Source: Deinococcus radiodurans R1 = ATCC 13939 = DSM 20539
GTDB lineage: Bacteria; Deinococcota; Deinococci; Deinococcales; Deinococcaceae
DNA length: 10,904 bases
Direction of reading: 5' to 3'
NCBI RefSeq assembly: GCF_000008565.1
Contig: NC_001263.1
Coordinates: forward strand, 1-10,904
Shown here in pieces: positions 1-10,904 of the stretch (position 1 is the stretch's first letter; the number at the start of each line of letters is the position of its first letter). The notes beneath the pieces were generated by a model. That model was not told the DNA's origin, did no database searches, and was given only the letters and a program-made list of their open reading frames with translations. The translations under genes were made by a program, and so were the position numbers.

Positions 1-1179
1 TCACGCGAACTCTGGCCTCGGTTCAAGCGGCGGTGAACTTTCCGGGTGATGGGCCAGGGCAGACATGCCCCGTAACGGCCTCAGAAGGCCCCTTAAACGC
101 GCAGCGTGACCATGACCGCCATATACCCGCCTCCCCCACCTACGGGCGCGGAAAATGGCGGGGCTGGTGGACCCGGAGAACAGCAGCTCGGCGTCTCCGT
201 CAATCGGGCCCAGCGCATCGAGCACATGGCGAGCGTTGAAGGCGAGGCTCATCGCCTGCTCGGTGCCGCCCTGGGTGACGCTGAGCGTGTCCTGAGCGCG
301 GCCATAGTCGCCCTCCGCAGCGAGGCGCAGAGTGCCTTCGGACACCAGAAACTCGACGCGGTTGTTGGCGTTTTTGTCGGCCAGCACGGCCACACGGTTG
401 ACCGCTTCCTTGAGGGCGGTGGCGGGCAGTGTCACCTGAAGTTTGATGTCCTTGGGAATGACCCGCTCGTAGTCGGGAAAATCACCGTCGAGCAGCTTGA
501 GGTTCATCTTCACGCGGTCGGTGGTCACGGTGAGCATGCCGTCGCCGTAGGTGAACCGCGCCTCGCCGTCCTTGAGCACGCGAATCAGTTCGTCCACGCT
601 GCGGGCGGGAATAATCAGGTTTTTGCCGTCGCCGCTCGCCGGAAAGTCGCGGATAGCCACCCGGTAACCGTCGGACGCCACCACGCGGGCGCTCTCGCCG
701 TGGTGCTCAAGCTTAATGCCGCGAAACACCGCCTGAAACGCCTCGTTGCTTGCCGCGTAGCGCACGCTGGAAAAGGCGCGGGACAGTTCGCCGCCGTCCA
801 GGCTCACATCGGCCTGTGCGGGGAAAGAGAGTGGCGGGTACGCTTCGATGTCACCGGTCTGGAGCTTGAAATCTGAGCCGCCCGAGCGCACCGAGAGTTC
901 CTGGCCGCTCAGTTCGAGTTCGACGAGCTCACCGCCGAGGTTGCGAACGATTTGCGCGAACAGGTGCGCCGGCACCACGAAGTTTTCGGGCTGCTGCACC
1001 TCGGCAGGCACGAAGCACGACAGGTCGATTTCCAGGTTGGTGCCGCTCAGCGTCAGGCCACCTTCCGACGTTTCGACCTTCAGCGCCGTCAGCAGCGGAT
1101 TGCTCGAACGGCTCGGAATCACACGTTCGAGCAGGCCCAGGCCCTCGTTCAGGGTCTTTTTGGTGACATTGGCTTTCAT
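1..1179 (-). CDS. dnaN: DNA polymerase III beta subunit (sliding clamp). As read, the frame is disrupted near 144-147, and the conserved C-terminus continues in another frame to a stop at 93-95.
   Basis: The 393-aa ORF (GTG 1182, ATG 1179) has a beta-clamp-like sequence throughout ([14 protein letters not shown]...[11 protein letters not shown]). After FRA it becomes an Arg/Gly/His-rich tail unlike any clamp. The adjacent minus-strand frame reads [16 protein letters not shown] then stop (TAA at 93-95), a typical clamp C-terminus. It lies downstream of dnaA and oriC on the same strand. Confidence 0.9.
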
Positions 1180-1187
1180 CACCGGCC

Positions 1188-1193
1188 ATTCTA
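1188..1193 (-). promoter_or_regulatory. Candidate -10 element (TAGAAT) for dnaN, very close to the start codon
   Basis: The minus strand reads gcgTAGAATggccgGTGATGaaa. The hexamer is 5 nt from GTG(1182) and 8 nt from ATG(1179). There is no Shine-Dalgarno between them. The ddrC -10 has the same hexamer. Confidence 0.35.
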
Positions 1194-1293
1194 CGCCGTT
1201 TGCCCGGCAGATTTCAGGGGAGAAAACCGCGTTTAGGACGGCCTTTTTGGCAATGGCATTTGCAGTAGAGGGTTTTTGCAGCCAACTCCCGAC

Positions 1294-1738
1294 TTATCCA
1301 CAGAACTTATCCACAACCTGGGGAAAACTTCGTGCTGGACATGAAATTGTTCTGAGCTTCGGGTCTGGAATCTGAAGAACGATCAGTCCTGAGACGCCTC
1401 ACGTTGGATCTCAACTCGGAACCTCCTTTTGGAATTTTCCAGAGTCCTTTGTGGAAGGCCCAAGGTCACCTGGCCTATCTGTTAACTGTTCTTCTTAAAA
1501 AATAAAAACAGTAGTAGCAGTAGTAGGGCCTGTGGATACTGTGGAAAACTCACCTTGAAGCCGTCCCAGAGGACAAAAGTTTTCCACAGAGGGGGTGTGG
1601 ATAACCCCGAAAACCTGATGGATAAGCTGTGGATAACTTGGGGGGTTATCCACAGGGCATTTTTAGGGGCAAGTTATCCACAATTTTATCCACAGGATTT
1701 TGGCACTTATCCACAGGATATCCACAGGTTTTTCCACA
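1294..1738. other. oriC: Chromosomal replication origin (oriC): 13 DnaA boxes in the dnaA-dnaN intergenic region
   Basis: Perfect TTATCCACA at 1294, 1307, 1646, 1674, 1686 and 1707 (+ orientation). Perfect TGTGGATAA at 1596 and 1628 (- orientation). One-mismatch boxes at 1531 (TGTGGATAc), 1540 (TGTGGAAAA), 1580 (TTTTCCACA), 1718 (aTATCCACA) and 1730 (TTTTCCACA). The region lies between dnaA and dnaN and is markedly less GC-rich than the flanks. Confidence 0.92.
1476..1530. other. AT-rich candidate DNA unwinding element with a DnaA-trio-like array (TAG TAG CAG TAG TAG) and a GGCC cluster abutting a DnaA box
   Basis: Positions 1476-1526 are about 27% G+C by hand count (tatctgttaactgttcttcttaaaaaataaaaacagtagtagcagtagtag). 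The trinucleotide array is at 1512-1526 and GGCC is at 1527-1530. The adjacent DnaA boxes at 1531-1539 and 1540-1548 follow directly. Confidence 0.5.
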
Positions 1739-1866
1739 GAAAGTGAAAAGTTTCACCGCCATTTGGAACGGGATTTTGGAACGTTTCAGCCTATGACCTA
1801 ACTTTTGGGGGCATAATCTGCATACTTCCGGCATCTCATTCTCTTCCCAGCATACCAAACTGGCCC

Positions 1867-1888
1867 AAAAAAGGGGCCCTTCGCCCCT
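1867..1888 (-). terminator. Rho-independent terminator downstream of dnaA
   Basis: The minus strand reads AGGGGC-gaagg-GCCCCT followed by TTTTT, and it begins about 15 nt after the dnaA stop codon (1904-1906). Confidence 0.7.
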
Positions 1889-1903
1889 CTTGGCCCGGCA
1901 ACC

Positions 1904-3304
1904 TTACGCCCCGACTTCTTCCTCCTCTTCCTTGCCCTGAATCCGGTTACGCAGGGTGTTCACCGTGGCGGCAAGTTCGGGGTCTTTGCCCATCTGTTCG
2001 GTGATTTTGCTCACGGCGTGCATGACGGTGGAATGGTCGCGTCCGAAAAACTGGCCGATTTCGGGCAGCGAGTGGTCGGTCAGTGCGCGGATGAGGTACT
2101 GCGCCACCTGCCGGGGCACCACGATGTCGCGGGCGCGGCCCGAGCCGCGAATCAGGTCGGGGGTGGTGCCGTAGTGCGCGGCCACCTGCCGCAACACGTC
2201 GGTCATCTCGACCTTGGCTTCCTGCGGAGCGAAGACGTTGCTCAGGGCCTTGGCCGCTGCCGCCCGCGAAAAGGGCACATTGTTGAGGCTGGCGAAGGCC
2301 ACCACCCGCATCAGCGCCCCCTCCAGTTCGCGGATGTTGCTGGTCACCTGCCGGGCGATGAGTTCGAGCACCTCCTGCGGAATGGTGATGTGGCCCTGCT
2401 CGGCGTTCATCTTCAGAATCGCCACGCGGGTTTCGTACTCGGGCGATTGGATGTCGGTAATCAGCCCCCACTCGAAGCGGCTTCGCAGGCGGCCTTCGAG
2501 TGTCTGGATGTCCTTGGGGGGCCGGTCCGAACTGAGGATGATCTGCTTGTTGCTCTCGTAGAGCGCGTTGAAGGTATGGAAAAACTCCTCCTGGGTGCGC
2601 TCCTTGCCCGCCAGAAACTGGATGTCGTCGACGAGCAGCAGGTCCACCGAGCGGTAGCGGTTGCGAAACTGCGTGGTCTTGTCGTCGCGGATGGCGTTGA
2701 TGAGTTCGTTGGTGAACGTCTCGGTGGACACGTACTCGATGCGCTTTTCGGGAAAGCGCTCAGCGAGGTAGTGCCCCACCGCGTGCATCAGGTGGGTCTT
2801 GCCGAGGCCCACGTCCCCATAGATGAACAGCGGGTTGTACGCCTTGCCGGGCGACTCGGCCACCGCGAGCGCCGCCGCGTGCGCGAGGTTGTTGTTCGGG
2901 CCGACCACGAAGTTCTCGAAGGTGTATTTGGGGTTCAGCGTCTTGCGGTTGTCGCCGGGGGTGCTTGGGGGAGGCGTGGGCGCGGCTTTGGTTTTGGGCG
3001 TTGGGGCCGCCGCTTCGGGCGCGGGTGGGGGGTCGTTGGGGAGCAGCAGGGCGTCTTGCGCGGCGGGCAGCACCTGAAACTCGACCTGCGGGTGCTCGGC
3101 GCCCAGCGAGCGCAGCGCGGCGAGCAGCAGTTCGAGATAATGGTCGCGGAACCAGTCCTTGGTAAAGGAGTTGCGCACGCCGAGCAGCAGCGAGCCCTCC
3201 TGCACGCCGAGCGGTTTGACCGGCGCGAACCAGGTCGTGTACTCCAAGTCGGAGACGTTTTTGCGCACGTAAGCGAGGACGTCGGCCCAGATTTCCTGTG
3301 AGAT
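1904..3304 (-). CDS. dnaA: Chromosomal replication initiator protein DnaA. The 5' end is extended to an ATC codon; the first canonical start is GTG at 3268.
   Basis: AAA+ Walker A ([10 protein letters not shown]), Walker B (LLLVDDIQF), and a C-terminal DnaA-box-binding HTH region ([12 protein letters not shown]). The frame stays open upstream of GTG 3268 and encodes (I)[11 protein letters not shown], which matches the conserved DnaA domain-I N-terminus. A GGAGG sits at 3314-3318 (minus strand), 9 nt before ATC 3302-3304. Confidence 0.9.
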
Positions 3305-3490
3305 AGTGCTCCCCCTCCCCCGTTCGGCGGGGAAACTTGCCCCGCAAAAGTCAGGGTCAGGGTAGCAGACGCGGTGAAGCGGGCTAGGCGTTGGGAGCGC
3401 AAAGCGAAGTCATGGGTACTGGAGACCCCTCACCCCTTGCTTCGCAAGGCCCTCTCCCCCTAGTAGAGGGTCAAAAGATGAAAAAGCCCC

Positions 3491-3517
3491 CTCCTGTGCG
3501 GAGAGGGATGAATGAAG
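3491..3517 (-). terminator. Candidate intrinsic terminator downstream of ddrC
   Basis: The minus strand reads CCCTCTCC-gcaca-GGAGGGGG (8-bp stem with one G-U pair) followed by CTTTTTCATCTTTT, and it starts about 38 nt after the ddrC stop. Confidence 0.55.
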
Positions 3518-3555
3518 CGATGGAAGATAGGGGCAGCTTCTTTATGGCGCTTGTC

Positions 3556-4251
3556 TCAGCCTACGCGCTGCACCTGGCCCGCCCGTTCCCAGCTCTGGCG
3601 CTCGCTGCGGGCTACCTGTTCGTGGAGGGTGAGGATGGCTGCGTTGCCCCGCGCTTCGCTTTCCTGAATGGCGCGGGCGGTCACGGTGTCGATGTAGGCC
3701 AGCCGCAGCAGTTCGGCGCTCGTCAGGCCGTCGCGGGTGGCCTTGACGCCGCGTTCCTGACGTACCGACGCGCTGTCCTTGCCAAGGACGGTGCGGTTGC
3801 TGATGCTGCCGAGCTGACCGTAGACCCGGCCCTCGCCACCGTGCCGGGCGACGGTGGCGAGCAGTTCGCGCCGGGCGCCAGTGCTTTCCAGTCGGGCAGC
3901 GAGCCAGCGCCGGGCGTCAGGCTCGGGGTTGCGCTCGGCAATCTGGGCAGCCACGCGCACGTCGCCCTGCATGGCGCGGGCGAGCAGCTCCCGCGCCCGC
4001 TTCTGCCAGCGCCGGGCTTCGGGGGTGTCGAGGGCGAAGGCAAGCGCCACGAAATCGGGCACGCTCACGGCGGCCTCGGGTCCGGCGCCGAAGTCGCGGT
4101 ACGTCTCGGGCAGGCCGTGTTCGACCAGCGCCGCTTCCCAGCTTTGGGTGAGCCCGAGCTGCTGCTGGGCGGTGGGGGCGTGAAGCAAACCGTCCGCGCT
4201 GACAGGCAGCCGCACGGAGCCGAAATTGAGGGTCAGCGGAGCGTTCTTCAT
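3556..4251 (-). CDS. ddrC: DNA damage response protein C (Deinococcus-specific DNA-binding protein), 231 aa
   Basis: The ORF has plausible protein composition, sits immediately upstream of dnaA, and is preceded by an RDRM palindrome. Its length and position match my recollection of the locus next to dnaA in D. radiodurans (ddrC). No general domain motif is recognisable by eye. Confidence 0.75.
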   Translation of the reverse strand: MKNAPLTLNFGSVRLPVSADGLLHAPTAQQQLGLTQSWEAALVEHGLPETYRDFGAGPEAAVSVPDFVALAFALDTPEARRWQKRARELLARAMQGDVRVAAQIAERNPEPDARRWLAARLESTGARRELLATVARHGGEGRVYGQLGSISNRTVLGKDSASVRQERGVKATRDGLTSAELLRLAYIDTVTARAIQESEARGNAAILTLHEQVARSERQSWERAGQVQRVG

Positions 4252-4257
4252 ACAGAT

Positions 4258-4266
4258 ATTCTAGCA
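4258..4266 (-). promoter_or_regulatory. Extended -10 promoter element (TGcTAGAAT) of ddrC; predicts a leaderless mRNA
   Basis: The minus strand reads tgTGcTAGAATatctgtATG. Only 6 nt separate the -10 hexamer from the ATG (4249-4251), and there is no Shine-Dalgarno. Confidence 0.6.
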
Positions 4267-4270
4267 CAGA

Positions 4271-4287
4271 TTATGTTTTTGACATAA
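4271..4287. promoter_or_regulatory. Radiation/desiccation response motif (RDRM), the predicted DdrO repressor operator
   Basis: A 17-bp palindrome, TTATGTttttgACATAA, with perfect TTATGT/ACATAA half-sites. It lies 20-36 nt upstream of the ddrC ATG and overlaps the -35/spacer region of the ddrC promoter. Confidence 0.8.
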
Positions 4288-10391: not shown

Positions 10392-10438
10392 AGACCCATT
10401 GAAAATGGAGCTGTGAAATCACCGCTTCCAATGGGTCT
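10392..10438 (+). repeat. 10-bp perfect inverted repeat enclosing the transposase start codon
   Basis: AGACCCATTG (10392-10401) pairs with CAATGGGTCT (10429-10438) across a 27-nt spacer. The right arm contains ATG 10431-10433. Confidence 0.6.
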
Positions 10439-10904
10439 GATGGCCATCCTACAGTACGTTCTCAGCGCGGTCCCGCTGCGCAAGACGCAGCGGAATTTCC
10501 TGACCGTGCTGCTCAGCGTTTTTCTCGCTGTTCCTGGACGGCTGAACGCCCTGAATCTCTCCCGGTATGCAGCCTGCTCGGAGAGTACGATTCGTCGTTG
10601 GCTGCACCGAAGTGACGATGGGGCCATTCCGTGGGGCGCGTTACACCAGGCGACTGTCAGTACAGCAATCGAGAGTGGGCTGATCAGCCCACTGTGCGTT
10701 CTGGCCATCGACGCCTCTTTTCACCGCAAAGCCGGTCAGCACACCGCACACCTCGGCTCGTTCTGGAATGGCTGTGCCGCGCGGACCGAACGCGGAATCG
10801 AGCAATCCTGTTGTGCCCTCATTGATGTCCAGCACCGGCAGGCCTTGACGGTCGATGTCCGTCAGACCCTGACCGGGTCTGAGGCTCCAACTCGTCTGGA
10901 ACAG
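10431..10904 (+). CDS. DDE transposase, N-terminal 158 codons (partial, continues beyond the window)
   Basis: The frame is open from 10380 to the window end and was absent from the ORF track because it has no stop. My translation is MGLMAILQYVLSAVPLRKTQRNFLTVLLSVFLAVPGRLNALNLSRYAACSESTIRRWLH...CVLAIDASFHRKAGQHTAHLGSFWNGCAARTERGIEQSCCALIDV. The xIDxSFxxKxG...G.FWNG...G.E pattern is typical of the first catalytic-Asp region of IS4/IS701-like transposases. Alternative starts are GTG 10413 and ATG 10440. Confidence 0.7.
   Translation, partial: MGLMAILQYVLSAVPLRKTQRNFLTVLLSVFLAVPGRLNALNLSRYAACSESTIRRWLHRSDDGAIPWGALHQATVSTAIESGLISPLCVLAIDASFHRKAGQHTAHLGSFWNGCAARTERGIEQSCCALIDVQHRQALTVDVRQTLTGSEAPTRLEQ

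Follow-up and report, generated by a model that had tools for sequence, protein, structure and literature searches.

The dnaN gene at the start of the 1999 chromosome sequence of Deinococcus radiodurans R1 contains an extra cytosine near its 3′ end, which is absent from the other assemblies of the same lineage examined here, and removal of this base yields a product identical to the D. radiodurans clamp protein that has been crystallised. We consider it very likely that the D. radiodurans gene is read in a single frame and encodes an ordinary β sliding clamp of 361 residues, and hold with equal confidence that the extra C reflects a base-calling or editing error made in 1999, not biology, mutation or recoding. 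The discrepancy is already known: it has been published, and both RefSeq and later assemblies have put it right. The stretch of DNA analysed here, referred to as the window, comprises 10,904 nucleotides and corresponds to AE000513.1:1-10904, the 1999 TIGR sequence of chromosome I of D. radiodurans R1/BAA-816.

Translated as given in the record, the open reading frame of dnaN terminates at a TGA codon at positions 3-1 of the minus strand, and its 393-aa product is exactly the protein deposited as AAF09595.1 and UniProt Q9RYE8 (locus DR_0001 in the R1 genome of 1999). This product is frameshifted after Ala346, where the sequence ...SPAIFRA gives way to an Arg/Gly/His/Pro tail of 47 residues. At the point of the shift the coding strand reads GCCC (positions 147-144), and the segment that is encoded in the neighbouring frame is identical to the C-termini of the public protein WP_027480259.1 (P0001) and of the protein in PDB entry 4TRT. 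In later assemblies dnaN stops at the 93-95 site, with the enolase gene following ∼200 bp further. The gene body has a G+C content of 0.81 at third codon positions, compared with 0.69 for the corrected C-terminal segment and 0.60 for the as-read tail. The original prediction, made from the sequence alone, had described the coordinates of dnaN, the tail, the alternative frame with its stop codon, the GCCC and the adjacent G-rich run, and re-reading of the sequence reproduced all of these exactly to the base. A chance test is not applicable to the extra C, which is a single discrete change of one base and not a statistical pattern. The features of the window are listed in Table 1.

Table 1. Coordinates of dnaN, of the segments around the extra base and of other features in the window.
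Feature	Position	Strand	Remarks
dnaN as read (DR_0001)	1..1182	-	393 aa from GTG at 1182-1180; 392 aa from ATG at 1179-1177
CCC on coding strand (GGG on + strand)	144..146	-	Holds the extra base behind the frameshift; CC in the other R1-lineage assemblies examined
G-rich run GGTGGGGGAGGCGGG	126..140	-	Adjoins the site of the probable error; codes for the Gly5 stretch of the corrected C-terminus
C-terminal coding segment of the corrected frame, with TAA stop codon (93-95)	93..143	-	Read in the frame that results when one C at 144-146 is left out
Region downstream of the corrected stop codon, intergenic between dnaN and eno	1..92	-	Translated in the record as the last 30 residues of the tail plus the stop codon
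dnaA	1904..3268/3304	-	454 aa from GTG at 3268 (1999 annotation); 466 aa with start at 3304 (RefSeq, most later gene calls)
DDE-type IS transposase gene	~10413-10904	+	Runs past the end of the window; assigned from the equivalent gene at positions 1-768 of contig L002

The record was compared with other sequences of the R1 lineage. Eight independent sequences (CP031500, CP094462, CP050116, CP050120, OV024757, JHYL01000016, CP150840 and an ENA metagenome contig) contain CC instead of CCC, and an alignment, base by base, with seven R1-lineage sequences other than the record places the difference exactly at this site. Five assemblies could be aligned over the whole window and deviate from the record at 2-3 positions each, while CP094462 differs from the window by 9 small gaps and zero substitutions. 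Only two sites, 146 and 1618, differ from the record in all aligned later assemblies. The base is thus missing from independent sequencing of the same lineage, with the exception of a single Logan contig that is discussed below. A scan of the metagenome_contigs and genome_contigs collections, with a pattern covering either allele and then with the common flank, gave no match; D. radiodurans appears to be absent from these collections.

When the CCC at 144-146 is shortened by one C, the gene encodes a protein of 361 residues, in agreement with the size of ∼361 aa that had been foreseen for a clamp encoded in the other frame. The corrected sequence is the same as that of the public protein ANC70347.1 and others, annotated as 'MULTISPECIES: DNA polymerase III subunit beta [Deinococcus]'. 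This sequence represents its cluster and occurs on 226 contigs from NCBI, JGI, ENA and Logan, with 277 index blocks listing it. No entry was found in the contig index when the 393-aa product was looked up, and an alternative repair of the reading frame, giving ...FRPVGG..., is absent from the protein collection. Both the as-read and the corrected proteins contain the three tandem clamp domains PF00712, PF02767 and PF02768, all scoring above the Pfam cut-offs; in both, the third-domain match ends at profile position 106 of 121, so that the Pfam profiles do not distinguish the two endings. The two proteins differ in their alignments with known structures. The corrected protein matches PDB entry 4TRT over residues 1-361, whereas the as-read protein can be aligned with it only up to residue 350. 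Similarly, the alignment with the Thermotoga maritima clamp (PDB entry 1VPK) reaches residue 360 of 361 for the corrected protein, extending over ...GYLYIVMPIR, but stops at residue 342 for the as-read protein. The protein in 4TRT consists of the 361-aa sequence with the native GTG-encoded Val in front of it and a tag remnant behind it. It forms a ring-shaped dimer, solved at 2.0 Å resolution (PMC4350885), and its identity with the corrected protein over residues 1-361 assigns to the latter the ring-shaped head-to-tail dimer fold.

The corrected ending is also the one observed in related proteins. The 120 best homologues, from Deinococcus, Deinobacterium, Meiothermus and metagenomic relatives, have a median length of 361 residues, and 75 of them end in LRV. 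A motif of the form Y/F-x-A-[LIVM]-[LIVM]-x-x-[LM]-[RK] is located 1-2 residues from the end in 110 of the 120, the ten exceptions being fragments or carrying close variants of the motif. A hydrophobic C-terminal strand and an overall length of ∼360-370 aa are present in the corrected frame, and not in the as-read product. Comparison of both C-terminal endings with the orthologues, as suggested at the outset, shows that the short ending is shared, and the long tail occurs in none of the 120 homologues, with not a single 7-mer of the tail found in any of them. The genomic context of the gene is likewise that of a clamp gene, since dnaN adjoins dnaA and the replication origin.

The same base has been encountered before at the bench. 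Niiranen et al. (2015; BMC Struct Biol 15:5, PMC4350885) cloned the gene from R1 genomic DNA and obtained it without cytosine 1039, a gene position that equals position 144 of the window. They expressed the short form, verified it by MS peptide fingerprinting and crystallised it, whereas the long form, rebuilt by re-insertion of the C with primer CATTTTCCGCGCCCGTAGGTGGGGGA, failed to express in Escherichia coli (PMC4350885). Their DR_0001 and the gene described here are one and the same, with the same base involved (C1039 of the 1182-nt gene), the same sizes of 393 versus 361/362 aa and the same conclusion. Niiranen et al. ascribe the discrepancy to 'annotation'; the underlying cause, however, is a base in the sequence, which is located here by means of eight later assemblies. 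More recently, a comparison of AE000513.1 with resequenced ATCC 13939 (PMC11219805, published in 2024) has listed the difference in its Table S1 as '146 Deletion G, DR_0001 1037delC Ala346fs'. The first entries of that table are 146, then 1618 (intergenic), and next 37,941. According to the same study, the CDS is omitted from RefSeq NC_001263.1, and other R1 genomes carry WP_027480259.1 (361 aa). A further paper from 2024 (PMC11276467) includes the Pol III β subunit among the genes affected by indels and lists the same 1-bp difference. A proteogenomics study that reports frameshift corrections for D. radiodurans (PMC7593589) does not mention dnaN. The preference of the original prediction for a one-base insertion in the assembly is accordingly borne out by the assemblies with CC, by the endings of the orthologues, by the crystallised protein and by the literature on C1039.

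The 1999 record is known to deviate from resequenced R1 genomes at several hundred small sites. One published comparison counts 436 differences, 'likely attributable to sequencing errors', and the two differences found in 10.9 kb correspond approximately to the average density for the record. Other frameshift errors in it (in ssb, mutS1, recJ, dnaX and dncA) are likewise single-base indels that split or extend genes in this Sanger-era genome of 67% G+C, and they have been corrected through resequencing and proteogenomics. The dnaN case, an extra base in the record, belongs to the rarer class, with 58 sites compared to 278 of the opposite type (PMC11219805).

As to the origin of the extra base, we infer base calling or editing in 1999 in preference to a mutation in the template DNA. 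When this genome of 67% G+C was read with Sanger-era methods, a single base was very likely over-called in the C-run at 144-146, beside the G-rich stretch. The additional C puts the final 16 codons of dnaN in the wrong frame and fuses the gene to a meaningless tail of 47 residues. A compression caused by the G-rich run had been put forward as a possible source. This idea is plausible. The run adjoins the site, and a weak local hairpin can form between it and CCGCGCCC, but the hairpin of CCGCGCCC with GGGAGGCGG has a predicted energy of -13.6 kcal/mol, which is no stronger than that of shuffled sequence (z = -1.2) and hence not unusual.

In E. coli, the hydrophobic cleft between domains II and III in which the clamp binds its partners is lined by the C-terminal residues of the protein, and the loss of these residues would be expected to be deleterious. 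The failure to express the long form fits this expectation. Where DnaN from AE000513 or Q9RYE8 is used in modelling, primer design, proteomics databases or comparative genomics, the protein has the wrong C-terminus, and the affected part falls in the region of the partner-binding face of the clamp. The value of the correction is one of housekeeping only, with no new biology involved, unless the discordant read set described below proves to represent a real culture.

Of the alternatives, the one that survives best is that the extra C genuinely arose by mutation in the culture line or sub-line sequenced at TIGR. The record would then be right for that DNA and would describe a strain-specific dnaN allele, whose tolerance might be possible through wild-type copies of the gene in a polyploid cell. 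We regard this as improbable, although one read set seems to speak for it. Contig L001 (Logan SRR4046661_703) is 100% identical to positions 1-3452 of the window, including the record-specific bases at 146 and 1618, and it runs seamlessly across the coordinate origin of the record into eno and pyk, thereby resembling circular DNA and not the linear reference. Positions 1835 and 3307 of the contig are the equivalents of window positions 1618 and 146, respectively. The existence of L001 is unexpected if both bases are pure base-calling errors of 1999, unless the reference sequence served as the source of the run. SRR4046661 is thus either a reference-generated run or derived from a culture line that truly carries both insertions. 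A literature search for SRR4046661 and SRR40466 returned no mention of the run, and Table S1 of PMC11219805 contains zero 1999-specific differences in the final 6 kb of the chromosome with which L001 could be compared. It is also relevant that the strain sequenced in 1999 has since been found to be a stock of its own, BAA-816, and not ATCC 13939, and that BAA-816 itself is stated to be still in need of resequencing (PMC11219805).

Several observations nevertheless argue against a mutation in the sequenced line. The dnaN gene is essential, and the segment that would be lost is the conserved C-terminal strand. The 392-aa product is present on one contig only, L001, whereas the 361-aa product occurs on 226 contigs and in 277 index blocks. 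For BAA-816, reads are publicly available from 43 mutation-accumulation lines and from evolve-and-resequence populations, and a CCC shared by the whole stock would be expected to have given rise to many contigs of this type. Moreover, the long form of DnaN could not be expressed (PMC4350885), and published comparisons ascribe most of the discrepancies between BAA-816 and ATCC 13939 to probable errors in the 1999 sequence (PMC11219805). Less probable again is the more specific possibility that the extra C and the base at 1618 were both real in the 1999 culture line and still exist in one or more laboratory stocks, including the one behind SRR4046661. If true, this would imply a viable D. radiodurans line with a dnaN allele encoding a scrambled C-terminus, perhaps buffered by wild-type copies in a polyploid genome.

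It is hardly conceivable that the genome truly contains the extra C and that programmed +1 ribosomal frameshifting at this site still allows a normal clamp to be made. As in prfB, a known example of such frameshifting, a +1 shift would be required to read the C-terminus of the clamp from dnaN as given, and a Shine-Dalgarno-like sequence, GGGGGAGG, is present near the site. Unlike in prfB, however, this element lies downstream and not upstream of the shift site, and the sequence at the site, CGC GCC CGU AGG, offers no slippery codon for re-pairing in the +1 frame. The local structure is not stronger than that of shuffled sequence either, and the clamp is encoded in a single frame in all other R1-lineage assemblies examined and in all 120 homologues, none of which needs a shift and among which no shift site is conserved. 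When the C was put back, no expressible product was obtained in E. coli (PMC4350885). Recoding at dnaN, which had been ranked as the least likely option from the beginning, is therefore rejected for want of both a shift site and conservation.

The intergenic region between dnaN and dnaA (positions 1294-1738) is the chromosomal replication origin. It contains 13 DnaA boxes (TTATCCACA, with at most one mismatch), distributed over both strands, of which 8 are perfect, compared to an expected number of 0.53. The record has just one other base of its own in the window, an extra one at 1618, which falls in this region and breaks an otherwise perfect DnaA box TTATCCACA: at positions 1613-1623 of the minus strand the record reads TTATCCATCAGG, whereas all later assemblies aligned have TTATCCACAGG. 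In Table S1 of PMC11219805 the site is listed as an intergenic deletion, without comment on the DnaA box.

Two further differences between the 1999 annotation and later work in the window concern the choice of coding region. The two lengths reported for DnaA result from the choice of start codon, the sequence itself being unchanged. Beyond dnaA, two long open reading frames overlap on opposite strands, at 3391-4287 on the plus strand and at 3556-4251 on the minus strand; the 1999 annotation chose the plus-strand frame (DR_0003), whereas according to RefSeq and later work it is the minus strand that carries a gene here, ddrC (231 aa).
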